The notes beneath the pieces are model-generated. The model was not told the DNA's origin. It made no database searches and saw nothing but the letters and a program-made list of their open reading frames with translations. This document shows positions 17,514 to 39,550 of a stretch of 64,000 nt of DNA, piece by piece (within the stretch, counting starts at the first letter, position 1; each line of letters begins with the position of its first letter). Origin of the DNA: Peribolospora baueri (taxonomy: Eukaryota); the NCBI GenBank assembly GCA_029717555.1, contig JAMDHS010000011.1:1-64000 (forward strand). Direction: 5' to 3'. The position numbers were made by a program, and so were the translations under genes.

Positions 17514-20500
17514 TCAATAGCTGCCCGGCAGCTTTGGGGAAACGAGATGAACCGAACCGCCGTCACGGGTGGTCGTCTGAGGCGACGTCGACGTCGAAAA
17601 AGACCCACCCACGCTCGTCCGTCCGTCCGTCTCACTGAGCTCCGGCCCAGACTGGCCGCCTTCGGCGCCGAGAGGGGCGGTATCCGCCGGGCTGGCGGAA
17701 GCCTTGGCAAGCATTGGAGAGCCGCCGCCGGAAGACGGCGTCTTGACGACGACGGCCCCTGCGGCGGCGGCATACGGCGGGCCCGCAAGCGTGTCCAAGC
17801 GGGACACGTGTGGTTGGGTGAACGTCGCGTCGAATTGCATATGTGTCGAATCGTCAGACCCAGCGATGCCGATGCGGTGTCCAGCGCCGAGCGGGGGTGC
17901 CGCGGACGGATACGAGGACGCGTCTGGTTGGTGCTCATACGACGATGGCCATGGCTGTGAGCCGGCGAGGCTCTGAAGCGCCGCCGGGCTGGAGCCGAAG
18001 CCAGGGCGGGGAACGGCGCTGGTGGGGGTGAGTGGAGAGAAGCTGTCGATCATCTGATCAAAATGCATCTCCTGCGTCTCGCCGTGGAGATTGAGAGCGG
18101 GAGGGAGGACGTGACCGCCCTGCTGGATATGCTCGCCAAACGAGTGCCCAGATGACAACGAGTGCCCAGATGAACTACCGCCGGCGCCGCCGCCACCGCC
18201 AAAGGTAGGTAAAGAGGCCGAGGTGGTCGTGCCGGCAAGACTCTCCGAGGCGCTCGTACCGATGACGGGCGACTCGAGCCGGAGTCCAGCCATGGAGCTC
18301 TCGGCCAGACCAGCGACCTCGGGGTTCATGGAAGTGTAGGGGACGGTCTGCTGTCCAACAAAGGAGGAGTGCAAGGAGGACAGACTGGACGTGCTGGCCG
18401 CCGAGCTGAGAGAGCCATAGAAGGAGTGCGACGAGGCGATCGAGTCACCGCCGATGCTGCCGGCGCTCGTTCGACTGCGCGGCACGTTGCTGAAGTGGTA
18501 AGAGCTGGGCGGAAAGTCGGCGAGGCTGGCGGATGCGAGGCCGGAGAGGGACGCCGACCGAGTCGGGTACGCGAGCGTGGAGTGCTCGGTGGCCATGGCG
18601 GGGGCCGAAGTGGGGGGCACGGAGAAGTACATGGAAGGCTCCATGGGGAGGGGCAAGACGGCAGTGCTGGAGCCGAAATGGATGAGGTCCCGAAGCGGGC
18701 CCTCCGTCTCCGCCAGCCTGAGCAGCGCGTCTCTGAGCCTAACCGCGGGGCCGGTGAGAACGTGCCGGAGGACGTGGGACGCCTGTCGGTTTTCGGTAAA
18801 GTCGGCACACTGCCTCCAGAAGGCGCGCCCGTCTTCCTCCGTGGCGGCGGCGGCGGGAGCGGCGGGGGTGTTGGTGGTGGTCGTGGTGGCATGGCCTTCG
18901 CGGACGACCTGCATGAAAAAAGTGGGCGGGCGCTCGAGGTCGACGATGAGCATGCCCTCTTCCTGCCCTTCGCTGCTCGTCGCGCTTCCCTCGGGACCAA
19001 GGTACCACCCGCCACTGGACTGTCCGGGACCACAGAGCTCAAAGGTGATGGAGCGAACGACGCTGAACGGGGTCTCGAGCTTGAAGCCGACCGAGTCGGA
19101 GGAGAGGTACCAAGTAAGCGTCTGAAGGCGTCGGGAAAAGAAGCAGACCAACGGCGAGACGCGTCGCCAGGTGCCGATGGTGAGCTGGGTGACGGGGAAG
19201 GGCGGTACAGACTCTCGCTCGAGGCCGCCGAGCACGCCTCCTCCGCCTTCCGTCATCGTTCTCGGGCGGCCGGCCAGACCGGCTCTGGTGCCGAACCGAC
19301 TGAACATGCCGCCTGCGGCGGCGGCGGATCCCATGGCCGTCACGGGCATCTTGGGCGGGAAGTTCATCAGAGCCGGGTTGAGATTGAGGCTGAGCGAGCC
19401 GGAGCCGGAGCGCATGGTCCGGGTGGCGGCGAGTGGCTTGCCGGGCAAGCCTGAGCCGGTGGGAGGAGTGGACGTGGACGTCGGACCGGCGGCGGCCGCT
19501 TTCTTTTCGTTGGCTTTGACCTTTGCGCGGCTGTAGGCGCCGTAGGGGCGGAGGGGAGGGAGCAAAGTGATGATGATCTGAGTTCAGTCCTGGGCGTACC
19601 TTGGTGCCTGCGCGCATTTTGGGCCCCACGCGTTCCTTGCATCTCATCTCCCACGCTTGCAGACAGGCAGGCGGGACGCGCGCGGGCGCGCACGCACCGC
19701 GTACATCTACGGCACTCACCGGTTCTGGAACCAGACCTGAACGCTGCGCTCGGGCATGTCGAGGGTGATGCTCAGCTCCTCGCGCAGTTTGGCCGTCGGG
19801 TTACGGTTTCGAGCGAAAAAGGCCTCGAGCGCGGCGAGCTGCTCTGTGGTCGTCTTGTTCCGTTTGCGTTTCACCGGCGGCGCATTAACGTCCTGAGGCT
19901 GAGACGACGAAAAGCTAGGTCCGGCTCCGGGGCCAGCGCCTGACCCCGTGACAGTGGCTTTGCCCTTGCCGCTTCCGCCGCTACTTCCTACCCCTGCTCC
20001 TGCTCCGCTGTCGTCGTCGCCAGCGGGAGAGGCGGTCCTAGAAGACGAACGGCGGCGAGTGGAGGGAGGACTACCAAGCGGAGGGCCGGGATTCATGGCG
20101 GCAATGCGGGAGGAGAGCTGACCGTGGCCATAGTCGTAGATGACCTGGGCGCCCTGAGCAAGGCCGTAGGGCGCTGGCGGCGGCGCGCCGGACACGGGCG
20201 CCGTCGCGGGGCCCATGTGGGCGGTCAAAGGGGTCATGCCGAAGGGAGCGCTGAGGGTGGGCAGCGTCGCCGTCTGGGGTCGAACGGCCAAGGCGGCGGG
20301 GATGGCGAAGGGCATGCTTGCGCTGGTACCCTCGATGGGCGAGGCCATGAAGCTGGACGTGTCGGAGGCGGAGGCGAGGAAGCTGGACGTGTCGGAAGGG
20401 GTGTCATGGGCGGCGTGGTGGCCGGCGTCGGCCTCGATGGAGCGGGCATCGTCGTCGACGACAATGCCAACGCCGGCGCGGAGGCCAGCGAGCAAGTCAG

Positions 20501-21052
20501 AGTGGCCGACGCTGTCGAGGTCGAGGCTGAGATCGAAGGTGGACGTCGGCGCGGACAGGCGACGGCCTACGACGCGGTTCGAGGACGGCACCGCCGGATG
20601 CTCGGCTATAGGTCCGGTCGTTTCGGCTCCGACACCGGGTTCGTGGTGTGGTGTGTGGTGGTGCGCCTGTCGCTGTCCGCGGGGGTCTGCTGCGCTCGAC
20701 GGCGGCTGTTGCCACATGGATCCGGCGCTGGGGTGGACGACGAAGGTGGCGTCGGCGGCGGAGGAGCAAAAGGGCAACTCGTGGTCGTATCCGTATCTGG
20801 CGTCCAGAGGGGGGATGAAATCAACGTCGAGCGCAGGCGGCTTGGTGGTGACGAAGGGGAAGAGGGTGTCTAAGGGGCGGGGACGGGGGCGGGGAAAGAA
20901 AGTGAGCAGGGAGACCTTTCCGGGCATCGCATGTAGATCGTGGAGCGGTCGCGAGAGAGGGAGGGAGAAGGAGGAGGAGGAGGTGGGCGCTGGTCGCGTC
21001 GGCTGGACGCTCGCTCGCTCGCTCGCTCACCTGAAGAGAGAGAGGCCGACAT
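17514..21052 (-). CDS. Homeodomain transcription factor, Phx1/Pah1/HbxA-like; exons ~21052-21031, 20869-19720, 19530-17514
   Basis: Homeodomain KRKRNKTTTEQLAALEAFFARNRNPT..REELSITLDMPERSVQVWFQNR|RAKVK. It is followed by the family's companion domain (LTIGTWRRV...FKLETPFS...LERPPTFFM...WRQCADFTENRQAS.VLRH.LTG). A 22-nt first exon (MSASLSS) splices in frame. Confidence 0.88.
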
Positions 21053-24000: not shown

Positions 24001-24448
24001 ACGACCGACGACCGACGGCGGTCCTCTTCCTCTCGTCTCCCAAACATCGCGACGTCTCCCTCCCAGCGCCGCCCTATCTATCGCTCTCCGTCCCGGTCTC
24101 GGTCTGTCGACAGACTTGCGCTCAATGCCGAGCGTCGGCGTCGTGAACCTGACGAAATCATACACACAAAACACACATACATACACGGACCAGCTCGACC
24201 GTCGGGTGTACGTGTACAAACGAAACGGTGATGAAGACGACGCGATGCGATGCGAGCGAATGATGGACAACGGGTGGAAAACGACTTTGACCGACGGCCG
24301 ACGATGACTGCGACTGTTTCGGATCGGTTCAACCCTAGCTGCCAGCACACCTTTTTCTCTCGTCTCTCCTTCCACTGACCGTGCAACCCAGCCAGGCCAT
24401 CTCTTTTCTCCCATCCCTTTTTTTCCTCTCCCCGCATCCTCCCCCCCT

Positions 24449-25939
24449 TCAAGGAGGCGCCTCCTCCGCCTCCGTCGACTCGGTCGCTAAGACAGTTTCG
24501 ATGGCCACCGGGTCGGCCTGGACAGGCACTGGCCCGTACGCTCCTCCCGAAATCGATCCAGAGGGGATGATCCAGTACTCGGGCAGGAGGACGAGAGCTT
24601 CTTCGACGCGGGCGTGGGTGACCAGGAGGAAGAGGCCAAATATGGGTTTGGTAAAGAGATCCTGTGCAAACAGCACCGATCCCGTTTCAGCTTAGGCCAG
24701 ACGAGAAGAACATGGCCCCCAAAAAAAGGGACCGACAAACGACAAAAACGCTCACGAGGATAGCGTAGACCGTCACTTCCGCGTCGACGTTGATCACCGC
24801 CGCGCCTTCGCCGAGGGCAAAGCAGATCGGGTAGAGCGTCCAGAGGCTGGACAGGTAAAAGGCCAGACCGGTGTACACGCCTCCTACTCGGGGCGAGCGG
24901 CGGTGGGCGGCTACTCATGGCAGACACGATTGAGCTTACGTTTCGGAAAACACGGTGGCGAAGAACGCTGACTGAAGCAAGGGCCAACTCACACTTCCTG
25001 CCGTTCGTAAGCAGCGTCCAGACGATGGCGACGAAAAAGACGCAAGAGAACGCGTAGAAGCCCCACGCGTACCTGTCACGTCGGGTCAAGGAAGGCGAGA
25101 GCAAGGAAGAGCCTCAGTTCCATTCTTGTGCGTCGGCGGTGTGCTCGAAAACAACAGCGAGTTTACCTGCGGATCGGGTGGATGGCAGCCAGCAAGGCCG
25201 TGATCTCCATGCCTTCGCCCATCGCCAGCAGGACGATGATCTGTCCAAACGGGACACGTCAACGGACCGAAATGTGAGTGCCCCTCACTTTCGACACTCG
25301 CTTCCGGTTCGTTTTCGAATCTCACCTCTCCGATGGACATGCCTGCGACGAGGGCAAGGTCCAGCAGTCTGTGAAGGAAGAGGAGGAAACAATATAACTT
25401 TGTCGAACCACCTCTTTCACCCCCCACTCGGCATAACCAGCCGCAGACGCACAGCATGGGCATGGTAATCGCGTAGTCGACATAGCGGGCCACTTGAATC
25501 TCGCGTATGTAGATGAGCTCTGGCTCCACGTCCATCCTGACGCGCTCTAAGACGTAATGGACGCCAAGCCTACGAGCGGAAAAGGCGGGTCGAATCATAA
25601 ATGAGCCCCCTCTGCCGTCGAAACAAAGGTATGGGAACGGATTGGATGGGAAAGAGAGGTCTCACTTTGTCGCCATGGCGTAATAGGACAGCTGGGGGCG
25701 TACGCGCATCAACAGCAGAAACATCGCGAGTCACCGATAATTAGCCGACCTCGCCAGCGAAGGGGAGGGCACGCGTCATCTTCACTCACAGCAGCAACGA
25801 TGCTAATGACGGCCGTGGTGAAATGCAAGAGCCTCATGCGGAATGGTGCCCTTCTGGTGAGAAAGATGAAGACGAGAGAGAAGAAGGCAAAGAGGGCAAA
25901 GCCGGTCCAGAACACGTCCAAGCCCACGAAGGAGGCCAT
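24449..25939 (-). CDS. Type-1 (microbial) rhodopsin/opsin; 8 exons: 25939-25790, 25691-25666, 25569-25453, 25368-25326, 25240-25167, 25072-24993, 24910-24756, 24661-24449
   Basis: Spliced 7-TM protein: helix B LSYYAMATKLG, helix C ARYVDYAITMPMLLLDL, helix F LWTLYPICFALGEG, helix G EVTVYAILDLFTKPIFG with the retinal Lys. All introns are GT-AG and phase-compatible. Confidence 0.93.
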
Positions 25940-26325
25940 CTCCACAACAATCACGCTGTATTGGAGGTCAACACGCGAGGAAGCCCGCAAGGAAGAAGAC
26001 GTCCGCGCCCGCGCACGAGGTTTAGTGACGATAAGAGTGAGAGTAATTGGAAAAACAGAAATGGGTCGAGGGGTAGGTAGGCAACATTCAGTCAAGCTGG
26101 GTGGTCAGCGATGGCCACACCCCCGCATGCCGATTCAGGCTGGGACACCCACGCATGCTCGGGTAACCTCCCTGGCGGCCTAGGCTTGGGGGATCCTACA
26201 CGATCGCCATCGTCCCCGCTGCCCGCGTACCCGGCCAAGGCGCCGAGAACGAGTTGGTTGGTTTGGTCGAGGAGTGTGTCCATTTTTGACGGTGGTCAAG
26301 CCTCCTCGCCAGTTTTGGAACGTCG

Positions 26326-27409: not shown

Positions 27410-28725
27410 ATGTACTCATCCTCCTCCTATACGCCACCTCTCTCCCTCACCATCCTCGGCGCCATATTCCTACTCCTTGGCGTCATCTGCGTCGTCCCCA
27501 TCGCCGTGGATATCCTTCTCCGTCGAGGATGGAAGTCGATGATGGGTATCATGTGAGTGTGCCCACTTACCAGCGAAGAACACCGTCCGCGACGTGGCGC
27601 CCCCTCGCTCCGTCTCTCTCTGCGCCGACCATGGAATTGGCGGCTCCATTGACTCTTTTCTCCATCGCACGCAGGATCCCCGTCTATCTCCTCACACCGC
27701 TCTACCTTGGCCCCATCGGCACGTTCTTCTACTTCCGCTACGGCAGGGCCGCACCACCGGGGCAAAAGTCAGAGGTCATGAACTGCCAGGCGCACGACAT
27801 GAGGGCAGGTCAGGACTCGGAGAACCAGGCTGACTGTTGTGAGGTGCAGCCGGAATGGACGGGTCCAAGAGGTGAGTGAATGCGCCCGGAGGGTCGTTGG
27901 TCGTAAACATCCCTGCTCGCGTGTACCACTGCACGCTTCGGTTCAACTTCCAGCCTCTGTTCGGCCCTTGACGCCGTGTCGTTTTTTCTCCATTATCGTG
28001 CCGCCTCATAAAGACATAAAGCGTCAGACGTCGGAAGACGAATCGGGACAGCGACACGCTAGCGATGATAAACATCACGCGCACCGTGCTCACTGCGCCC
28101 ATCACGCCGACCTTGACGAGACTCCAGACGCTTCCTCCCCCCGCACCCCGTCCTGGGTCACTGTCTTCGCCGGCGTGCTCCACTGCGGCGCGGGCTGCGC
28201 GCTGGGAGACGTCGTGGGCGAATGGCTGGTCTACGGCACGAACGCCACCATCTCCGGACGCACCATCTGGCCTGAGGTGCTGATCGACTATGCCTTTGCT
28301 CTACTCTTCGGCATCGTGTTCCAGTACTTTTCCATAGCGCCCATGTCGGGCCAATGGGGCCCCATGACGTTCATGAGGGCGGCCAAGGCGGATATCGTGA
28401 GCTTGACGGCGTTCCAGGTCGGTCTGTTCGGCTGGATGGTGATCTATGAGGTCGCCATCTGGGACTACAAGCTGGGCATGGTCACGACAACATATTGGTG
28501 GATGATGTGAGTACCCTCGCCCGGTGCCGTCCGAGCTCGAGGAAGCGTCCGACCGTTAAAATAATTGCACGTTGTCGTGATCGTCATGGTTCTGCAACCA
28601 ACCTCGGCGCTCTGCTTCCTCCTCTGTACTCGCCCAGGCAAATCGGCATGATCCTCGGCTTTGCGACATCCTACCCGGTCAACGTGTTTCTCATTCGTAA
28701 AGGCATCAAGGAGCCGTGCGTCTGA
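27410..28725 (+). CDS. DUF4396-like integral membrane protein (multi-exon; intron 2 boundaries uncertain)
   Basis: N-terminal TMs (..IAVDILLRRGWKSMMGIM|IPVYLLTPLYLGPIG.FFYFRYGR), then W..VFAGVLHCGAGCALGDVVGEW, DYAFALLFGIVFQYFSIAPM, AAKAD..SLTAFQVGLFGWM, YWWMM|QIGMILGFATSYPVNVFLIRKGIKE. Confidence 0.82.
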
Positions 28726-30708: not shown

Positions 30709-33618
30709 CTAGTAGTAGTAGTAGTACACTCCCGGTTCCGGGGTTGCTTCGCCTCGCCGCCCGCCCTGTCTGTGGTCCGTCGGTGGCCGGTTGTGTGGTG
30801 TCGTCTGATAACGAGCCCGGTCCCTGCGTTGGAGTCCGCCTCGACCGCGGCCTGGTCCCCTCACCCGTCCTCCTCCCCTCGGATGTTGAGGACCATCCGA
30901 CGCCGTCCGCGCACCACGGCGACGCCGTCTCGGCGGATAGCCTTGTGGGCCCCACATTAGCTGCTCTTGTCCTGTCCAAGGCGACGTCGGAAAAGCGACG
31001 GCAGCGTAGGCAGCTTCGGCAGGGGTAAGCTCTGCTCCAGGCAAATTCTGCTGGAACGTTCTCCCAGGAGAGAAGCCGCTCGTGGGCACGCGAACGGTGC
31101 CGAAACTGATACTCTGCATGGGCTCTTCGGGCTCATTGGCGAGACCGAAAGGCGAGCCCGAGGGTTGGCTGAGGAAACGCTCGATGTTCGCGATCTCCTC
31201 CCTTCCCATCCAATTGAACCTTCGTGTCCACTGAGGCGAAGGCGTCGTCAGCGTCCTCCAGTCCCCATACCCCTTCGTGAATCGCGTCGGCGATCGAATC
31301 CTCCCGGCGCTGCTAGTTAAGCTCGGGTCCGAGTGGGCATAAGGACTGCTACTGTCATCGAAGAAGATTAGAGGAGTCTGCCAGGTCGCCGGCGTACTAG
31401 GAGGGGCTTTTGCAGAGGCGGGCGGAGACGTCAGTTCATGGTGAGAATGGCTCTGAGGAGCGTCGGCGCACATTGGTTTGGAAGGTGAAACGGTAGGCTC
31501 GAGGTGGGGCAGACAATCGAGCGCTAGCGAGTTGAGGAACCTGACACGGATCATATCCTCTTCCTGAACGTTTTGCGCCGCCTCAACCTGGCCCCACGAG
31601 AGCGTCTCCAGGCCGACGGACTCAAGGAGACGGAGTCGCCGCTGCGACGACGCTCTTTCCTCCTCCTGGGAGCCGAAGTCGGAAAACATCCACATCCTGG
31701 CCACCTCCTCGCTCATTGTCCGCGAGCGCACGCGCGGAGAAGGTGCGAACGTCGGATGATGGAGAAGGACGCGAGGCATCGCTTTTCGCTGAATGTTTGG
31801 AGCGACGTTGACATCAGCTTTGGGCTTCGCTGTAGGCGACTCCGGCTGATGCATCGCCGTCGTTTGTGACTGACGGTCGCGGCAATGCGGGCCAGCGAAG
31901 AACACCACGTCAGCGTTAGAAGGTTGAGGAACAAGCGAGAAACGAGAGTATATGCGCACCTGGCTTTGGTTGAGAGGTTGACTGGCAGCCTGGGCATAGG
32001 ATCTGCTTCTGACGTGCGCTCGCCCAGGACTGGATGACAGGGAATCCGGTGGTGGTATGGAGGATGGTTTCGACTTGACCGGACTTGCAGCCTGTGCGTA
32101 AGATAACCTCTTCTCACCCATGGACGCCATCACCGCAGGTGGTGTGCGTTGGGCGTCCGTCGTTATTTTAAGGGGCGGATTTCGGGTCACCATCGGCTTG
32201 GGAGACGGGGTCGCAGGCGCAGCATCAAAAATGGTATCGTTTCCACCGCTCTCTCCGATCCGACGTTCGCCATCTTCGGCGCGGCTCGCGCTCCTTTCAG
32301 TGGACCGCCCATCCTTGTCATTTGCCCAGTCCTCGTCCTTACGCGCCTTGGCTTTCTTCTTCGACCTTCCCTTTCCTCGCCTGCTGATGACCTTGAAGTC
32401 CGTTGGGGTCATAACGGCGGACGATGGGCTCCGCATGTCATGGGCCGGGAGTTGGTCTTTCATCAATAGTTCTGGGGAGGGGTTTCGCGTCGCCGTCGGC
32501 TCGGGAGATGGGGACGCAGGTGCGGCATCTGAAACGGAGTTATTGCCGTCGCTCTCCCTCATCCCACCCTCGCTTTCATCGTCGCGGCCCGTGCCAGTTT
32601 CAGCGGGTTCCCTGCTCTTGGCCCCATCCTTGGCCTTCCGCGTCTTGGTCCTCCTCTTAACCTTCTTTTTCGACTTGCCCTTGCCTCTCCGGCTGATGGA
32701 CTTGGGGGTCCTGGGTGACATGTCAGGTAAAGATAGTCCCCCTACGTCATCGCCGTCGGCAGTATTTGCTTTAGCATCATCGGATGGAGGGCGGCGGGCA
32801 GAAGGAGGCGTAACGGGCGGTGAAAGGGGATGAATGGTGATTGGATGAGAGAACGATTCGCTTCGTTCCCCCCTGGAGGTGCAGGACCTGAGACGGTGCA
32901 GCATGCTGCCGTGCCCAGGGTTGGGCCAGACAGATGAGGAGGCGTCCTCAGCGGAGGGGGAGTGGGAGGGATAGCACTGCTCGCCCGGTCCATCGCTGAC
33001 CGTATCGGGCGAATCAGGCCTGGCCTTCGCATCGAGTCGAGCGGGGTCGTTGAGCTCGGGCGATGCGCCCGTGGCGAGCAGGGAGGCGCGGGCTTCAGCA
33101 TTGGTGCGAGCGAAGAGGGCACGGGCGCATTCCACACGCTGCCACATTTCCTTGGAACGGTGGAGGTAGAGGACCTCGTCGAGGTCTGCCTGTGAGATGA
33201 TGACGGACAGGCCTCCTTCGCGACCGGCCTGGCACGGCGCGGAATGTTGCTGGTAAAACAAGTCTCTGGTGTGAGGCCCGGCAGAAGAAGAGACCGCCTG
33301 CTCTGAAGGTGGAGGCGGTCGGCTAGAGTGGAAAGATCCAAGGGCAGCGGCAGCCTCACTCGCCCACGCGGTGAGCGAGAAGAACGAGTCTTGATCGGCG
33401 CCCCTGTTGGTATCCTTATTGACGGGGGGAGCACCTTTGGTTCGGGCGTGAACCAGCTGCTGGAGCTGGAGGGTCTCAGCAGCAGTCTGCGCTGGCTGAG
33501 GCCGGGCCTGGTCGGTAAAGTGTCTTCCTCCAACGTCTTCGGCTTGCATCGTGCTAGAGACGTGTCCAGAGGCGACGGCAAGGACGACGGCGTCCCAGGG
33601 CTTTGCGGACTTGGCCAT
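30709..33618 (-). CDS. Hypothetical ~940-970 aa low-complexity protein with an internal duplication; probable 90-nt in-frame intron at 31870-31959
   Basis: Stop-free 2.9-kb ORF with first ATG at 33618. GTGCGC donor, CTAAC branch and CAG acceptor define an in-frame intron. No recognisable domain. Confidence 0.65.
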   Translation of the reverse strand: MAKSAKPWDAVVLAVASGHVSSTMQAEDVGGRHFTDQARPQPAQTAAETLQLQQLVHARTKGAPPVNKDTNRGADQDSFFSLTAWASEAAAALGSFHSSRPPPPSEQAVSSSAGPHTRDLFYQQHSAPCQAGREGGLSVIISQADLDEVLYLHRSKEMWQRVECARALFARTNAEARASLLATGASPELNDPARLDAKARPDSPDTVSDGPGEQCYPSHSPSAEDASSSVWPNPGHGSMLHRLRSCTSRGERSESFSHPITIHPLSPPVTPPSARRPPSDDAKANTADGDDVGGLSLPDMSPRTPKSISRRGKGKSKKKVKRRTKTRKAKDGAKSREPAETGTGRDDESEGGMRESDGNNSVSDAAPASPSPEPTATRNPSPELLMKDQLPAHDMRSPSSAVMTPTDFKVISRRGKGRSKKKAKARKDEDWANDKDGRSTERSASRAEDGERRIGESGGNDTIFDAAPATPSPKPMVTRNPPLKITTDAQRTPPAVMASMGEKRLSYAQAASPVKSKPSSIPPPDSLSSSPGRAHVRSRSYAQAASQPLNQSQVRIYSRFSLVPQPSNADVVFFAGPHCRDRQSQTTAMHQPESPTAKPKADVNVAPNIQRKAMPRVLLHHPTFAPSPRVRSRTMSEEVARMWMFSDFGSQEEERASSQRRLRLLESVGLETLSWGQVEAAQNVQEEDMIRVRFLNSLALDCLPHLEPTVSPSKPMCADAPQSHSHHELTSPPASAKAPPSTPATWQTPLIFFDDSSSPYAHSDPSLTSSAGRIRSPTRFTKGYGDWRTLTTPSPQWTRRFNWMGREEIANIERFLSQPSGSPFGLANEPEEPMQSISFGTVRVPTSGFSPGRTFQQNLPGAELTPAEAAYAAVAFPTSPWTGQEQLMWGPQGYPPRRRRRGARTASDGPQHPRGGGRVRGPGRGRGGLQRRDRARYQTTPHNRPPTDHRQGGRRGEATPEPGVYYYYY

Positions 33619-33703
33619 ACTGTGTATAAATGCGCCGTTGAGGGGCAAAAACGGCTTGTGGAAGAGACAAACGTGGGAGAAGAAGCAGTAGAGATCAAGG
33701 GAG

Positions 33704-33746
33704 AGAAGAAGAAGAAGAAGGAGAAGAAGAAGAAGGAGAAGAAGAG
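33704..33746. repeat. Imperfect (GAA)n microsatellite upstream of the orphan ORF
   Basis: Read directly from the sequence. Confidence 0.8.
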
Positions 33747-34543
33747 ATGAGAGGAGGGAGGAGGAGGAAGTTGCGAGAGACGACCGACAGCCGCCCGTCC
33801 TTCGTCCCGCCTCCATCCCTTCTTAACCAGGCCGCCAACCCGATGCCCTTCCTCCTCCCCCGCCCCAACCACAGCCAACCAATCACCCGCCTTTCCTTCC
33901 TCCAGGCTCGGCCCTCGTATGAGCCGTCGCGTGGAGCACTTTACGCGCTCGCGTCGCTCCCAACTTGCTCCGAAGCAAGCGCAACACCAAGCTTGGCCGC
34001 CCTTCCGTCTTCCCACTTCCTCTGTAGATATATCGTGTCTTCGCTGTTCCCCGTTCCCCCTCTCCTTCTATATGTTTGTCTCCAACTTTCCCCACACATC
34101 TTCAATGCGACACGACAACAAACAATGAAGGCGTGGGACGCACTGGCTCCGGAGGACACGATCGGCGGGCTGGCGGGCAGGAGGGTACGACGGCAGCTGT
34201 GACAGAAAGAAGCTGGAAGGTCAAAAGCCGTCGCCACCCAGACTCGAACCCGTGCGTTCCTCGCCACGGACGAAGGAAATACGGGTTCATAAGTGGACGC
34301 CGTTGTGGCCAGGTCAAGATGCTTTGGGTGAAGCGCACCTCAAACCTATTTCACCTGGCTATTCTGGCCGCAGTCAGAATCAAGACAAGTGTGGACCATC
34401 ACGTGGAGGCTATGTGGCCACGCTTAGTTAGGCGTTTCGTGACGACGTGATTGGCATTCGCATTCAAAAGATCATGAGCAAGGACCAGACATGAAACGGG
34501 ACAGAGAAGAGGTATAGACCGGCCCCTCGCCAGCAAGCCGCAC

Positions 34544-37500
34544 TTAGTCAGCGCTCGTGAAGGGGTTCAAGCAGATGATCTGACGGTAGCGAGAAGCAAA
34601 CGGTGAGCGTCAATAACCCAGTTCATTGCATCGGTTCCAGGAGCTCGACGACAGACTAACCTTGATCACCGGAGGGCTCTTGAGCATGTCTGCGTACAGC
34701 GCGTCCAAGGAGAGGTAGGAGATAAAGAATCGGTGAGCGAGGGGGGACACGAGCACTTCTGACCAGTCACCGAACGCACCCGCAGTGACGACAACAGGCA
34801 CTTCCGCCAGCTCCTTGATGGTCTGAATGTTGTGGTTGGGCGTGACGGTGAGGTGATCGAACTTGGGCTCCTCCCTAGCGGACGACTTGGAGCGTTGCGC
34901 AGAGCCAGCGGCGGCCTTTTCGTCTTCCTCCTTCTTGGCAGCGGATGTCTTGACCATGATCCTCTCCTCGTCCTCGTCATCGAACAGGGCGCTCTCATCC
35001 TGGTGAGAATAGGAGGATACTTCCATCATGGCGTGCTGCTCTGCGAGCTCCTTCATCTTCTTGATGTGGACGTCGTCGCTTGTCTCGGCCAGCCACTTGA
35101 TCACGTCCACACCCCTCTTCCAGTAAATGGACAGCGTGTTCGTGTGTTCATCGTGGACGTGGTTCTAGGTGGAAGGAAGACGAAGGCAAGGAGGGCAATG
35201 TCGCGTGAGAAGAGCCGAGCCGGCTTGGACAGAAAGGCACATATGTGAATATCATCATGCAAACTCACCTCAATAGGCATCTGATCGACGTGGCATCTCT
35301 TCTCGATGCCGAACTCGGGAATGAGCACGTCAAAGGCCGAGTCAAGAACGCCGATGACCTTCGCCTGACGGATGACAGGACCATACCGAACGGTGAGGTC
35401 GGAGACGAGCAGGCAGAGGAACAGGTGGGCCGACTGCTCCTGTGCCGTCTTCGCCGCGTCTTTCTTGACGTTGCACTGTTGGGCCACCTTGGCCATCGCC
35501 TCACGGTCGAGAGTGAACTTGGTCTCGTCGTTCTGGAGCACAGCGTCGAGCTGCCTGTGAACGATGACGTCGGCGTACCGCCGGATAGGCGATGTGAAGT
35601 GGGTGTACAGAGGAGAACTGAGCGCGTAATGCGAGTATTTGGAAATGTCGAGCATGCCGCTGCAAAAGTATTGCGCCCGGTGCATGGCCTTGGTGCAAAG
35701 CACTTCGAGCACCTTCCGGTCCGTTTCGTCGCTGATCGTGTCGAGAGACTTCATCAGCGCTCCGGCGCTCGATACGTCCATTTCATAACCAAGGCGCTTG
35801 GCACGAGCGGCGAAGGCCTGGAGGCGGCGGTCGATGGGCTTTTCATGGCGACGGAGGAGCGCAACGTCGGGCATATTGGCCGCGATCTTCTGCGCGACGG
35901 TCGTGTTGGCCAGAAGCATGAACTGGCGAACGGGCCGCGGGAAAAAAAGACACAAAATCAGATGGAAAATCAGCATTTATTCAAACGGGCGGCGCCACCG
36001 ACGACGACCCACTTCTTCAATGAGGCGGTTGGCCTCGGCAGTCTGTAGCGGAGCGCAGTCAGTAGGAATGCCATCGTCGTCGAGATCGAATCCGAGCCTG
36101 ACGGTGTTAATCTTGAGGGCACCATTCTCGAAGCGCCTCTCGCGAAGCTTTTTGGACAGCTCGAAAAGGCTCCTGATGTCTTCCTCGACCTCGGCTACGG
36201 GAAGGCCAGAGACCTTAGACTCGTCAAAGTGGCCACCTTCGATGACGGACTGGGCATCCGAGTAGGCCAGCTTGCCACAGGACTTGATGATGGTGCGACC
36301 GAACCAAGTGCCGATGACGCGGGCGTCGCGGTTCATGGTGAAGACAACGCTGAAGGCGAGCCTCTCGACGTTGGGGATCAGAGAGCAGAGCTCCTCGCTA
36401 AGCGCCGGCGGGAGCATGGGCACGGCCCTTTGCACGAGATATACGCTCGTGCCGCGCTTGCGGGCGTCGCGGTCGAGCGCGTTGCCGCTCTTGATGAAGA
36501 AGGAGACGTCAGCAATGTGTACGCCCACTTCGAACAGCCCGCCCTCGAGCTTGGTGATCGAGACGGCGTCATCGAGGTCTTTGGCGGTCAGAGGATCGAT
36601 GGTGAACACTCTGGTGGAGCGGAAGTCGCGCCTGACCTGGTACTCGCGCTCGGGGATGGTGTAGGGAAGAGGCGGGAGACACTTGAGCACGTTCTCCGAG
36701 AACTCCTCGGTAGCGGAGGCGAGGTTGTCCTTAAGCAACGCCTGCGTCTCGGCCTCCACATCGCCGATCTTGCCGAGCTCCTCGACGAGCGTACCGAAGG
36801 GGTGGAGAGAGGTGATGGGCCACCTCTTGATCGAAGCGGTGTACAAGACGTTGGCGTACGCCTCTGGGTTCTCCACAAAGTCTTCGGGCGCCTGGTCAGT
36901 CGGAATTGCGATCAAAGGCACGCGCTTGTCCGTGGGCGTGAACCACACAATCTTGGGGCGGATCATGGGCTCGGGCTCCTCGGCGGCGCCGCGAGCGCGC
37001 CTCTCTGCAGACTGCTTCTCTTTAGTGGCAGCCGAAGAAGGGCGAAGCACGGCGAGACGGCCAGAGTAAAGCTGGCCAGGGGTGCGCTCCACGACGGCGA
37101 CGACGTGACCGGCGTACTTGGGTTTCTGCTCGTCAGTCACCTCCTCGTCCTCGAAGAGCATGAGGCCTTGGCCCTCCACTTCCACGTCGTCCTTCTTCTT
37201 GTCTTGCTTCCGGTCCAACGAGACGTTCTGGGCCGAGCGCATGTCCAGAGCCTGGTTCTCCTCCTTCTTGCGCTTCTTCTCCTCCTTCTCCTTCTTCGTG
37301 CTCCAAACCTCGTCGACGTCAAGCAGCTCAACAGCGACCAAGTCGCCTTCGAGAGCGCGGTTCCGGTCCTTGCTGCCGCAAATGAAAATGTCGGCGTCCA
37401 GGACGCCAGAAGTGACGAACGCGTCGGAGCGGTTGCGCTTGTTGATGCGGAGCAGACCAGTGACGAGTTTGCCAGCGGCGATGAGAGGTGGAAGGCTGGC

Positions 37501-39550
37501 TGCGGGCAGGTAGCTGCCAAAGAGCGCTTTCCTCTGGGCCTGCAACTGACCCTGTTGACCAAAGCTGGGGACGGTGCCGAGAGGGCCATTGAAGCCGGGT
37601 ACGATGGAGGCCATAGGGTTGAAGCCTCCGCCGAGGCTGCTCTGATTGCGCCCGTGCCCTCCCCCACTGGGCGCGCCCTGGCCTCCCACGACCTGCCTGA
37701 AGTGATGCAAAGAGGCGAGTTGGGCCTGCGCCTGGGCGAGGTCGGTCATGGGCTGGTTAGGACCGCCGTCTGAAAAAACGAAATGACCGACCGGGATTCG
37801 GTCAGCGCTTCTCAATACTTGAAACGGTCTCAGGAGTCTCAATGCGCTACTACTCACTGATGCGGAAACCGTCCAAGCTGCGACTACCACTCCTCGAGTG
37901 ACCGCCGCGGACCTGGCTGAAACCATCGGCAAGCTCACCGAAACCGGCGGCGTTACCCAACAAGCTGAGCGTCGCATAGTCGTTAGCAGGCATCGACTGT
38001 GTCATCGGGGCGTGTTGGTGCTGGGGAGGCGAACCGGGAAAGGTGAAGTTGTTCATGTTGACGCCTGAATTGCTGCCGCCCTGGGCCTTGTTGACGACGT
38101 TGACCGAGTGCCTCCTTCCGTGGCCGTGAGGAACGTTCTGCTGCTGGTGCTGCGGCTGTCCAAACAGCGGAGAGGAGCTGAGGTCGTTGGCGCCGCCGTA
38201 CGGACCTTGCTGAGGGATGGAGAAGGAGCCCATAGGCCCACCGAAAGGGCCGCTGTTGGGAACGTGGGACTGAATGCGGCGGTGGCCAGCGCCACCGTTG
38301 CGCTGCCCGAGAGCGCCCTGAGAGAGATGCATCTGTTGGTGAAGGAGGGCCTGTTGCTGGGCGCGAAGAGCCTCGATCTGACGCTGAATTTCGAGTTGTT
38401 CGGCCATGATGCTCGGGCTCATTTCGCTTCCCGTCCTCCTGTGGGCCACATGGATCCGAGGCTGCTGCGGATTGGTGCTGGCGACGGTGTGAGGCTCGCC
38501 TTGTTGCTGTTGCGGCTGAGGAGGGGGGAACTGGAAATTGGGGTTGCGGTGGACGTAGCCGTTGTCGTTATCCTGACCGCGCAAGCCGCCGACGAAGGCG
38601 CCGGCGTCATCCTCGTAATCGTCCAATTCGCCGACGCTGACGCCGCCACCGCCAGCATTTAGGTTATAGCCGAGATCGCTGAAGCGGGAGAGCAAACTGG
38701 CATTCCTGTTGTGTCCGTTCCCGCCGGCGTTGCGAGCGAGCGCGCTCTGGTAGGCGGCGGTGCCTGCGAAGCGTGGACCTTGTGAGGGGCTGACGGCCTG
38801 CATGGGCACGGGCGGCATGCCGAGCGAGGTATCCTCCTCGTCTTCTCCCAGGCTGGCGAGCCCACCGCGACCGAGACGCATGCCGGACGGGTTGGCTTGC
38901 CCAGAGACCACAGCCCGACCGGCCGCAGCGGCAGTGTTGAGGTTGAGCTGCTGCTGAAGCTGTGCCTGGAGGGCTTCCTCCTGGGCGGCGAGGCGCGATC
39001 CGACGGCGGCGAGCTCGGCAGCGACGTCCTGCTCCTGGCCCGCGGGGACGGCGCCGGCGCCGGAGTTCTGAACAGAAGGCGACAGCGACTTGAGGTCGCT
39101 AATGACTTGCTGGAGGTTAGACATGGCATCGGAGCTGCTCTGGGCGCCCTTGCCGGCGGCCTGAGCGGCACCGGAGCCGGACTTGCTCGCGGCGCCGTCT
39201 TTGGGCGAGGAGCGCGAATCTTCGGCGGCTGGAGAGCCGTCCTTCTTGCCAGACTTTTTGTCGCCCCCGCCGCCGCTTCGGCCACCACCTCCAGACCGCC
39301 TCTGGGAGCCGCCTCCACCGCCACCGCCACTGGCGCGCTTTTCGGAAGCGGGCGCATCAGCATTCTTGGTGGCGCCACCGCCGACGCTCGACTTGCGGCG
39401 ATCGCTCTGGCCGCCAGCAGCACCGGGACGGCCCTTGTTGGTCGAGTTGGATCGCGCAGGGCCACCTACGCCACCGCCACCGCTTCCGCCACTGCTCTTC
39501 TTCTGACCCTGGCTCTGGGCCTCGGGCTTAGTATCCTTTGTGTCCGCCAT
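34544..39550 (-). CDS. SSD1: Ssd1/Dis3L2 RNase II/RNB-family RNA-binding protein (multi-exon)
   Basis: Disordered N-terminus with HxRxxS sites; RKALFGSYLP; cold-shock domain GLLRINKRNRSDAFV..DIFICGSKDRNRALEGDLVAVELLDVDEVW; KIVWFTPTDKRVPLIAIP; RNB domain FTIDPLTAKDLDDA, YTHFTSPIRRYADVIVHRQL; ends IICLNPFTSAD*. Confidence 0.93.

Follow-up and report, generated by a model that had tools for sequence, protein, structure and literature searches.

Leptosphaeria maculans rhodopsin (LR/Mac, PDB 7bmh) is a green light-driven outward proton pump and one of the closest known counterparts of the gene reported here. Other fungal rhodopsins are known from published descriptions. Glu or Trp at the position of G116 in bacteriorhodopsin (BR) is given as a hallmark of the CarO-like ('auxiliary ORP-like') rhodopsins, e.g., Fusarium CarO (PMC4295100). 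In Ustilago, UmOps1 and UmOps2 are described as basidiomycete green pumps, UmOps2 being LR-like yet carrying the CarO-type Glu; from UmOps3 no photocurrent was obtained, and a sensory role has been proposed for it (PMC6467936).

Three further systems bear on individual pocket positions. Thr204 of Natronomonas sensory rhodopsin II (SRII), which corresponds to A215T in BR, has been described as important for colour, kinetics, and signalling (PMC3274258). Heliorhodopsins and schizorhodopsins, both reported to bind retinal and isomerise it, normally have Tyr at the position of BR W86 (PMC10424672). The engineered blue-shifted variants archaerhodopsin-3 M128A/G132V/A225T and C1C2 T198G/G202A are changed at the equivalents of BR G122 and A215, and archaerhodopsin-3 so changed is described as still an active ion transporter (PMC4479019).

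Gene structure and family membership

The rhodopsin gene occupies positions 25939-24449 on the minus strand of the window (the whole 64-kb stretch of DNA analysed), with an ATG at 25939 and a TGA stop at 24451-24449, and as predicted from its sequence it is an intact, intron-rich fungal type-1 rhodopsin gene. Eight predicted exons, separated by seven GT..AG introns of 82-98 nt, join into a single open frame without stops or frameshifts that would encode 285 amino acids. BR numbering follows two gap-free alignments, to LR 7bmh and to haloarchaeal bacteriorhodopsins in a 145-row alignment, the rows of which are cited by number. Frequencies refer to a set of 144 homologues that is biased in consisting of the top matches from a pair of searches; in the second, scoring was confined to 8000 candidates with shared words. 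The features are as follows.

25790..25939, minus strand: exon 1 (150 nt), running from the start codon through helix A and into helix B; GTGAGT donor at 25789
25891-25889, minus strand: codon of F17 (BR M20 position) in exon 1; F here is common to sister rows P0016, P0044, P0047, and P0048
25666..25691, minus strand: exon 2 (26 nt), LSYYAMAT, end of helix B with Y53 (BR Y57); CCCCAG acceptor, GTGAGA donor
25453..25569, minus strand: exon 3 (117 nt), B-C loop and helix C RYVDYAITMPM, aligned to 7bmh; R87 (BR R82), D90 (D85), T94 (T89)
25475-25473 and 25463-25461, minus strand: codons of Y91 (BR W86) and M95 (BR T90) in exon 3
25326..25368, minus strand: exon 4 (43 nt), LLDLALVAGMSIGE, with D101 (BR D96, proton donor); TCACAG acceptor, GTGAGA donor
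25167..25240, minus strand: exon 5 (74 nt), helix D, LLAMGEGMEITALLAA, ungapped against AVDEGMIITGL of sister P0048; G120 (BR D115), E121 (G116), M123 (M118), A127 (G122)
25207-25205, minus strand: codon of E124 (BR I119) in exon 5
24993..25072, minus strand: exon 6 (80 nt), helix E, YAWGFYAFSCVFF...NGRK; TGACAG acceptor, GTGAGT donor
24756..24910, minus strand: exon 7 as revised (155 nt), E-F loop SAHRRSPRVGG, helix F LWTLYPICF, and start of helix G; GAGTAG acceptor at 24911/24910; W187 (BR W182), Y190 (Y185), P191 (P186), F194 (W189), E198 (E194), E208 (E204)
24449..24661, minus strand: exon 8 (213 nt including the stop), helix G DLFTKPIFG, then the C-terminal tail; GCACAG acceptor, TGA stop; D216 (BR D212)
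24652-24650 and 24649-24647, minus strand: codons of T219 (BR A215) and K220 (K216) in exon 8

The eight exons and span proposed in the initial annotation stand computationally, with the intron 6 acceptor revised. Joining exon 6 to 24880 left the E-F loop some 10 residues short of its length in every homologue and scored 214.9 bits. Moving the acceptor to 24911/24910 (GTGAGT...GAGTAG, 82 nt) added 10 loop residues, gave an ungapped loop alignment, and brought the spliced product to 250.0 bits over its whole length against a profile of 24 full-length homologues. An alternative acceptor at 24914/24913 (244.5 bits) and a longer exon 6 with a GTGTTT donor (227.7 bits) both scored lower than the chosen model. 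Exon 2 aligns to the SY[YF]AMA conserved in homologues, and the tail motifs PEYW and GGAYG recur in P0010/P0044 and in P0016.

The N-terminus extends only about five residues before helix A, compared with 20-50 in homologues and a long N-terminal segment in LR, and a further exon may lie upstream of exon 1. This short N-terminus, the need to revise one splice acceptor, and a model predicted from sequence alone would fit an unexpressed relic or a wrong gene model, that is, a decaying or mis-spliced gene. Such an origin is nevertheless highly improbable given eight exons with canonical splice sites in one uninterrupted frame, a strong coding signal in third-position GC (GC3 of 0.78 in the exons against an intron GC of 0.54), and the 250-bit match to the family profile along the entire length.

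Family membership is evident at several levels. The frame of exon 7 alone passes the Pfam PF01036 cut-off (26.9 against 24.6 bits), the match of exon 6 to the same model is weak (13.6 bits), and among the listed matches of the clade profile all carry PF01036. The best solved match of that profile is LR, which is also the best, if weak, solved match of the helix C exon (E 0.11). The Schiff-base Lys and counterion complex are present (K220, D216, D90, and R87, equivalent to BR K216, D212, D85, and R82), and the DTD set of an outward proton pump is complete, with the D85 acceptor, T89, the D96 donor, and the E194/E204 release group. The proposal of a Lys-bearing fungal rhodopsin with the D85/T89/D96 triad is thus borne out, and the helix G Lys means that the product is not an opsin-related protein of the ORP-1 or Hsp30 kind.

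Relatives are distant in every collection searched. The best full-length identities to homologues are 38-40%, and an exhaustive HMMER comparison of an exon read-through with 1.84 billion representatives returned 38 matches, the best at no more than 42.9 bits, with nothing closer than about 40% identity. Word-index searches gave zero matches for the exon 3-4 frame and, among longer proteins, for the exon 7 frame, single exons being too short for E-values in a database of 5.8 billion proteins. No orthologue was found in the searched collections, so that the changed positions may reflect either adaptation or drift. Within the 64-kb window there is no second opsin, tblastn matches being confined to 24401-25951.

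Placement among fungal rhodopsins

The gene belongs to the lineage that also holds LR and is sister to a Sistotremastrum-type (agaricomycete) subgroup. In the careful IQ-TREE analysis it groups with P0048, P0044, and P0047 (support 96/93), and this group neighbours a clade of Saitoella and the LR-like row P0007 (90/86), which itself scores 330 bits to 7bmh; quick trees agree with this placement. P0048 is an uncharacterised 'family A GPCR-like' opsin of Sistotremastrum niveocremeum HHB9708, and P0047 and P0044 are metatranscriptome relatives. The highest identity to any row of the tree is 40%, that to the sister group lying well below 50%. The end branch of the gene (1.03) falls within the range of its sisters (0.77-1.07), so that its overall divergence is not accelerated.

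By the published hallmark the gene would qualify as CarO-like, since E121 lies at the position of BR G116 with the pump residues also present. Such membership is ruled out despite the Glu by the ascomycete CarO clade, a separate branch with the CarO-named row P0054 among its members that excludes the gene at 100/100 in the careful tree and 100 in the quick tree. UmOps2 is described with the same mismatch between class and Glu (PMC6467936). Compared by published description rather than sequence, UmOps2 and UmOps3, like the present gene, lie outside the ascomycete classes, and UmOps3 differs from it in having Ser at D96, which the gene keeps. The earlier view that the gene stands apart from Lys-less ORP/Hsp30 proteins is therefore upheld by the Lys, and its separation from the ascomycete CarO clade by the trees. 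The tree comparison envisaged in the initial annotation bears out this separation from CarO-like rows in a set without named NOP-1 or Ustilago sequences.

Several features that look unusual in isolation are traits of the family or clade rather than peculiarities of the gene. P0048, P0047, and P0044 all have the rare F at BR20 as well as E116 and F189, M92 is common to the gene, P0048, and P0044, and the C-terminal PEYW motif of P0044/P0010 resembles that of the gene. P0047 and P0048 differ from it in keeping W86, T90, D115, I119, G122, and A215. P0044 has been remodelled otherwise (R82H, W86A, D96E, D115N, M118W, G122Q, P186T, E194N), and its more disrupted pocket shows that the clade tolerates pocket decay.

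A conserved proton path and a replaced retinal cage

All residue calls of the initial annotation were reproduced. Helix C reads RYVDYAITMP followed by MLLLD (R82, D85, Y86, T89, M90, D96), helix D reads MGEGMEITA (G115, E116, M118, E119, A122), helix F reads LWTLYPICF (W182, Y185, P186, F189), the GEG and DAEV motifs supply E194 and E204, and helix G reads DLFTK (D212, T215, K216). The residues kept, in BR numbers, are Y57, R82, D85, T89, D96, M118, W182, Y185, P186, E194, E204, D212, and K216; D at BR96 is present in 118 of the 144 homologues. LR shares with the gene its fold and Y57, R82, D85, T89, D96, W182, Y185, P186, D212, and K216. At six positions changed in the gene, and at 189, it is by contrast canonical (ARYIDWAITTP, VADLIMVLTGL, YPIVWGL, DVLAKG).

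Thirty-one columns are at least 90% conserved across the 144 homologues; the gene keeps 22, among them R82, Y83, D85, T89, P91, M118, W182, Y185, P186, E204, D212, and K216, and changes nine, all in or beside the retinal pocket. Three of the nine (F20, M92, F189) are common to sister rows. The remaining six (W86Y, T90M, D115G, I119E, G122A, A215T) affect near-invariant residues that touch the chromophore or brace helices C and D and are replaced only in this lineage. Y86, M90, G115, and E119 each occur in none of the 144 homologues, A122 occurs in one of 144, T215 in four of 140, and F189 in eight of 141; BR119 is I or V in 142 of 144. Of the canonical cage only M118, W182, and Y185 are retained, the rest being replaced by Y86, M90, G115, E119, A122, F189, and T215.

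The claim of a pocket that departs from the norm at near-invariant positions is thus substantiated against the 144 homologues, and several of its particulars need amendment. E116 had been counted as a new acidic residue, and it is a family trait, Glu being present there in 49 of 144 rows (and Trp in seven). The changes W189F and A215T are real; F189 is found in the sister group too, and T215 recurs in four homologues. A count of homologues sharing the DY..TMP and DxxTK signature had been proposed; none of the 144 carries any of the four unique residues, the closest typical relatives, P0047 and P0048, are canonical, and by the refuting condition set in the initial annotation the six key changes count as private. 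The Y86 and M90 pair does recur in RYADYAITMP of L001, an unrelated eukaryotic metagenome rhodopsin. Kinship between the two was rejected, as L001 has an end branch of 2.1, is unplaced, and has its best identity (33%) to another row.

W86, T90, D115, I119, and G122, which rank among the most conserved residues of microbial rhodopsins and are 92-99% conserved in the 144 homologues, set chromophore geometry, colour, and photocycle speed. Their simultaneous natural change with the full proton path kept amounts to a ready-made experiment on how the cage may be rebuilt.

Private changes of this kind would also arise if selection for the chromophore had been lost and the protein were drifting along the path of ORP/Hsp30 toward another membrane role, with the Lys and counterions not yet lost. 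Every private change falls on a chromophore contact, the signature is conserved in no homologue of the 144, P0044 in the sister subgroup has gone further in losing residues of the pocket and of transport with K216 still kept, and Lys-less opsin relatives are described as widespread in fungi (PMC5796164, PMC6467936, PMC4915679). We nonetheless regard retinal-free drift as rather unlikely. The residues that matter only with a protonated Schiff base have all been kept (K216, D85, D212, R82, T89, Y57, Y185, W182, P186, D96, E194, E204), the changes compensate one another in size (W to Y with T to M; D to G) instead of being random, Tyr86 is described as compatible with retinal in two natural families (PMC10424672), and the overall branch length of the gene is normal. 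The gene and P0044 may represent two snapshots of a path to retinal-free opsin-related proteins, and the comparison bears on that conversion as well as on the role of basidiomycete rhodopsins.

Predicted colour and photocycle

The reading that we prefer, to which the sequence lends about an even chance, is that the product remains a retinal protein whose colour and kinetics are altered, with a spectral shift of uncertain direction. It would bind all-trans retinal and be photoactive. T90 is described as hydrogen-bonded to D115 and in contact with the C13 methyl (PMC3411786; bioRxiv 10.1101/2021.09.16.460656), in agreement with the interhelical bond invoked in the initial annotation (PMC3411786), and T90A is reported to leave about 10-20% of transport (PMC3411786; bioRxiv 10.1101/2021.09.16.460656). 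With both residues replaced, this bond would be lost; Met90 probably occupies the space freed by Gly115, and Tyr86 with Glu119, one helical turn nearer the outside, may make a substitute polar contact, both pairings following from helix topology only. I119 is placed 3.7-4.6 A from C7-C10/C19 of retinal (bioRxiv 10.1101/2021.09.16.460656); E119 brings a carboxyl to this position, which contacts retinal directly in the half of the polyene next to the ring (bioRxiv 10.1101/2021.09.16.460656). With this carboxyl at about 4 A from the mid-polyene and with Thr215 adjoining the Schiff base, the changes together would shift the absorption maximum in an uncertain direction and alter or slow the photocycle. 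The expected outcome would be a pump of distinct spectrum and lower efficiency, or else a sensor with a slow cycle, in place of a standard green pump. Several separate observations speak against this reading: Y86, M90, G115, and E119 occur in none of the 144 homologues, chromophore binding could be blocked by burying a Glu where retinal is contacted or by a Met near C13, and pocket decay is seen in P0044 of the sister subgroup.

The blue shift originally suggested is not predictable, because an ionised E119 would push absorption toward the red according to the field rule quoted in PMC4479019. G122A had been read as part of a ring-twisting blue-shift pair; as described, that shift requires a cavity-making change at BR118 in addition to G122A/V, and the gene keeps M118 and so has only half of the pair (PMC4479019). 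The engineered archaerhodopsin-3 and C1C2 variants differ from it further in being without Tyr86, Met90, Gly115, and Glu119. Heliorhodopsins and schizorhodopsins, although they share Tyr86, are distant and carry Y185F, heliorhodopsins having also W182F and an inverted topology, and no kinship with the gene is indicated.

The importance attributed to the A215T equivalent for colour and signalling accords with the published description of SRII Thr204 (PMC3274258). SRII and the gene both have Thr at BR A215 adjoining the conserved Tyr of BR Y185 (Thr219 and Tyr190 in the gene). Thr at BR215 occurs in four of 140 homologues and is therefore not diagnostic of the SRII type. SRII signals via HtrII, a kind of transducer that is not known in fungi. 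The 12-kb flanks of the gene contain no Htr transducer. Genes for carotenoid or retinal synthesis are likewise absent within 12 kb of it, which counts against the preferred reading.

Mutually compensating, nearly neutral substitutions would instead leave an ordinary green outward proton pump behaving like LR or CarO. The DTD triad, the proton-release glutamates, and the counterion complex are all complete, the gene sits in the clade of the proven pump LR, and basidiomycete UmOps1 and UmOps2 are described as green pumps (PMC6467936). Single changes at T90, D115, or A215 are, however, reported to alter transport, photocycle, or colour in BR or SRII (PMC3411786, PMC3274258), a carboxyl has been introduced at the hydrophobic retinal contact BR119 (I/V in 142/144 homologues), and silence of six changes together at columns 92-99% conserved would be surprising; standard green pumping is accordingly unlikely. 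If the preferred reading of a photoactive, retuned retinal protein holds, the gene might provide a scaffold for optogenetics or spectral tuning in which a carboxyl lies next to the polyene; were it an ordinary green pump or unable to bind retinal, its interest would be mainly evolutionary.

A more specific form of the retinal-protein reading, speculative and in our estimate improbable, is that the lock between helices C and D has moved one turn outward, Tyr86-Glu119 replacing T90-D115 and Met90 filling the gap at Gly115. With a titratable carboxyl about 4 A from the mid-polyene, the pigment might then have a colour that is strongly shifted or switchable by pH, and a slow photocycle of the gating type, in the manner of the 'DC-gate' position of channelrhodopsin, and the independent occurrence of Tyr86 with Met90 in the unrelated L001 would represent a convergent functional solution, so far undescribed.

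Elsewhere in the alignment with haloarchaeal rows, BR S141 is kept. A putative W138F change was rejected there, the variable W/Y/F column corresponding to BR W137; the counterpart of BR W138 is Tyr/Phe, which is normal in fungi.

Gene model and surroundings

The rhodopsin gene occupies window positions 25939-24449 on the minus strand, from an ATG at 25939 to a TGA at 24451-24449. It is predicted computationally as a single open frame of eight exons and seven GT..AG introns of 82-98 nt each, encoding 285 residues:

25939-25790, minus strand, exon 1
25691-25666, minus strand, exon 2
25569-25453, minus strand, exon 3
25368-25326, minus strand, exon 4
25240-25167, minus strand, exon 5
25072-24993, minus strand, exon 6
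24910-24756, minus strand, exon 7 (acceptor revised)
24661-24449, minus strand, exon 8

The simplest join, from exon 6 to 24880, left an E-F loop about 10 residues shorter than that of every homologue (214.9 bits). The chosen exon 7 acceptor at 24911/24910 (GAGTAG) yields the loop SAHRRSPRVGG, ungapped against the homologues, and 250.0 bits with a profile of 24 full-length homologues, compared with 244.5 bits for an acceptor 3 bases upstream and 227.7 bits for a longer exon 6 under the same profile. GC content is 0.78 at third codon positions versus 0.54 in the introns. The predicted N-terminus is shorter than in homologues, and a further upstream exon is therefore possible. The fungal rhodopsin with intact pump residues described in the initial annotation was borne out, with this splice site corrected.

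The exon 7 frame alone exceeds the Pfam PF01036 cut-off (26.9 bits vs 24.6), and the top solved-structure match of the helix C exon, albeit weak (E 0.11), is Leptosphaeria rhodopsin (LR; PDB 7bmh). A search query (P0001) comprising exons 2, 3, 4, and 7, which share one frame, read through introns with X at four stops, was scanned against all 1.84 billion cluster representatives, giving 38 matches at E <= 0.001 (top score 42.9 bits) and none at 1e-10. Compared with these matches, the first spliced model, of 275 aa, gave E values as low as 1e-46; the 200-260 aligned residues were 33-39% identical. Named relatives come from Saitoella, Mixia, and Melampsora. A second profile, from 14 homologues and six exon translations, found 179 additional rhodopsins; among the 120 listed are haloarchaeal bacteriorhodopsins, a protein from Sistotremastrum, and a CarO-named one from Fusarium. 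Since this search scored only 8000 word-sharing candidates, the homologue sample is non-exhaustive.

Open reading frames within 12 kb of the gene match G6PD, a GNAT acetyltransferase, a homeodomain protein, DUF4396, a ribosome-biogenesis factor, and a Dis3L2-type exonuclease; no carotenoid or retinal-synthesis gene was found among them, nor a second opsin in the 64-kb window by tblastn. The neighborhood is one of ordinary fungal housekeeping without photobiology genes, and includes:

19719-21026, minus strand, homeodomain frame
27803-28507, plus strand, DUF4396 frame
35104-38001, minus strand, Dis3L2-type RNB exonuclease frame
30712-33822, minus strand, open frame of 1037 residues, no Pfam match at E <= 1e-5
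17517-19583, minus strand, open frame of 689 residues, no Pfam match at E <= 1e-5

The last two could represent genes specific to this lineage or, in DNA rich in GC, frames open by chance.

Transport residues and retinal pocket

The product was aligned with the 144 homologues that are 190 or more residues long, with bacteriorhodopsin (BR) numbering anchored by gap-free helices and haloarchaeal rows; the aligned model used the acceptor 3 bases upstream and differs from the chosen one by a single loop residue. Residues kept, with the homologues sharing them, are Y57 (140/144), R82 (142/144), D85 (143/144), T89 (144/144), L93 (140/144), D96 (118/144), M118 (140/144), W182 (141), Y185 (140), P186 (136), E194 (125), E204 (139), D212 (140), and K216 (140). 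Judged by these residues, the transport chain is intact. By the same alignment, the pocket is exceptional.

Altered pocket positions in the query and the residues of homologues
BR86: query Y; homologues 142 W, 2 A
BR90: query M; homologues 142 T, 1 F, 1 S
BR115: query G; homologues 136 D, 6 N, 1 S, 1 A
BR119: query E; homologues 132 I, 10 V, 2 N
BR122: query A; homologues 141 G, 2 Q, 1 A
BR189: query F; homologues 131 W, 8 F
BR215: query T; homologues 130 A, 4 S, 4 T

Among 31 columns conserved at 90% or more, the query retains 22 and alters 9, a number matched by P0002 and exceeded only in two other homologues, P0044 and P0010 (12 and 11). The neighboring rows P0016, P0044, P0047, and P0048 share three of these altered residues (F at BR20, M92, and F189), leaving six private changes. 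Several of these take at least two base changes (e.g., TGG to TAC, ATH to GAG), which excludes read errors as their source. A suspected W138F change was dropped, the column being BR W137 by alignment. E116 and F189, initially counted among the pocket changes, proved to be family or clade background. BR116 is Glu in 49 homologues and Trp in 7; Glu at this position is the published hallmark of CarO-like rhodopsins (PMC4295100).

Predicted consequences of the pocket changes

In BR, T90 forms hydrogen bonds to D115 and to the backbone of W86, and it touches the C13 methyl; T90A retains about 10% transport and D115A changes the photocycle (PMC3411786). Elsewhere, T90A activity was given as below 20%, and the I119 side chain lies 3.7-4.6 Å from retinal C7-C10/C19 (bioRxiv 10.1101/2021.09.16.460656). 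The T90/D115 pair is the counterpart of the channelrhodopsin DC gate, which sets closing rate, and heliorhodopsins and schizorhodopsins, in which retinal isomerises normally, as a rule carry Tyr in place of W86 (PMC10424672). Helix topology would place positions 86 and 119 one turn outward of the 90-115 pair, such that a Tyr86-Glu119 contact, with Met90 packed on Gly115, could be a reasonable substitute for the lost bond.

Thr204 of sensory rhodopsin II, equivalent to A215T, influences color, kinetics, and signaling (PMC3274258). In the engineered blue shift, G122A/V and A215T accompany a cavity at BR118; by the field rule given in the same work, blue shifts are expected from negative potential near the Schiff base or positive potential near the ring (PMC4479019). 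Ala122, previously read as one of a blue-shifting pair, is indeed present, but the query retains M118, so that this design is present only in part. Thr215 and Ala122 favor a blue shift, whereas Glu119 on the ring half, if ionised, would pull toward the red. Given these opposing pulls the direction is not predictable; of the initial interpretation, the exceptional pocket with an intact transport chain stands, and the effect of the changes, the proposed blue shift included, is not predictable.

Phylogenetic placement and recurrence of Tyr86 and Met90

In a quick tree of 84 rows, an ascomycete CarO-like clade of 46 rows (support 100) lay apart from the query's group. IQ-TREE analysis of 41 rows set the query outside the CarO clade (100/100) as sister to P0048 (Sistotremastrum niveocremeum HHB9708) and the metatranscriptome relatives P0047 and P0044 (96/93); this group adjoins a Saitoella/P0007 clade (90/86). 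CarO-type Glu outside the CarO clade has likewise been reported for Ustilago UmOps2 (PMC6467936). The query's end branch (1.03) is similar to sister path lengths (0.77-1.07), so its overall rate is not raised; despite this, P0047 and P0048 retain the canonical residue at each of the six changed positions. In this sample, the changes are private to the query.

Other rows also depart from the canonical pattern. P0044/P0010, an expressed metatranscriptome opsin of the sister subgroup, is heavily altered in pocket and transport chain (in P0044, R82H, W86A, D96E, D115N, M118W, G122Q, P186T, W189F, and E194N) while retaining D85, D212, and K216, and may represent a second, independent departure within the query's clade. 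P0007/P0046, LR-like (P0007 scores 330 bits to 7bmh), has Asn at BR D96, D115, and I119; the proton donor is absent from an otherwise LR-like protein. P0076, named 'bacteriorhodopsin [Escherichia coli]' at NCBI, falls within the fungal CarO-like clade of the 84-row tree, adjoining a Bipolaris protein; a mislabelled organism or a contaminated record is the probable explanation.

The DY..TMP signature, suggested as a marker to be counted among homologues, was absent from the alignment, none of the 144 having Y86 or M90. A scan of metagenome contigs with a back-translation of R-Y-x-D-Y-A-I-T-M-P, a pattern narrow enough to miss variants, returned one locus, L001:

275-2245 of L001, minus strand, eukaryotic intron-bearing rhodopsin gene, GC 61%

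L001 has RYADYAITMP at the homologous site, with Q96, A118, L122, F182, and S215, and keeps D115 and K216. It is unplaced in the tree (branch 2.1) and not close to the query, its top identity (33%) being to another row; the Tyr86-Met90 pair is therefore convergent, with at least two origins.
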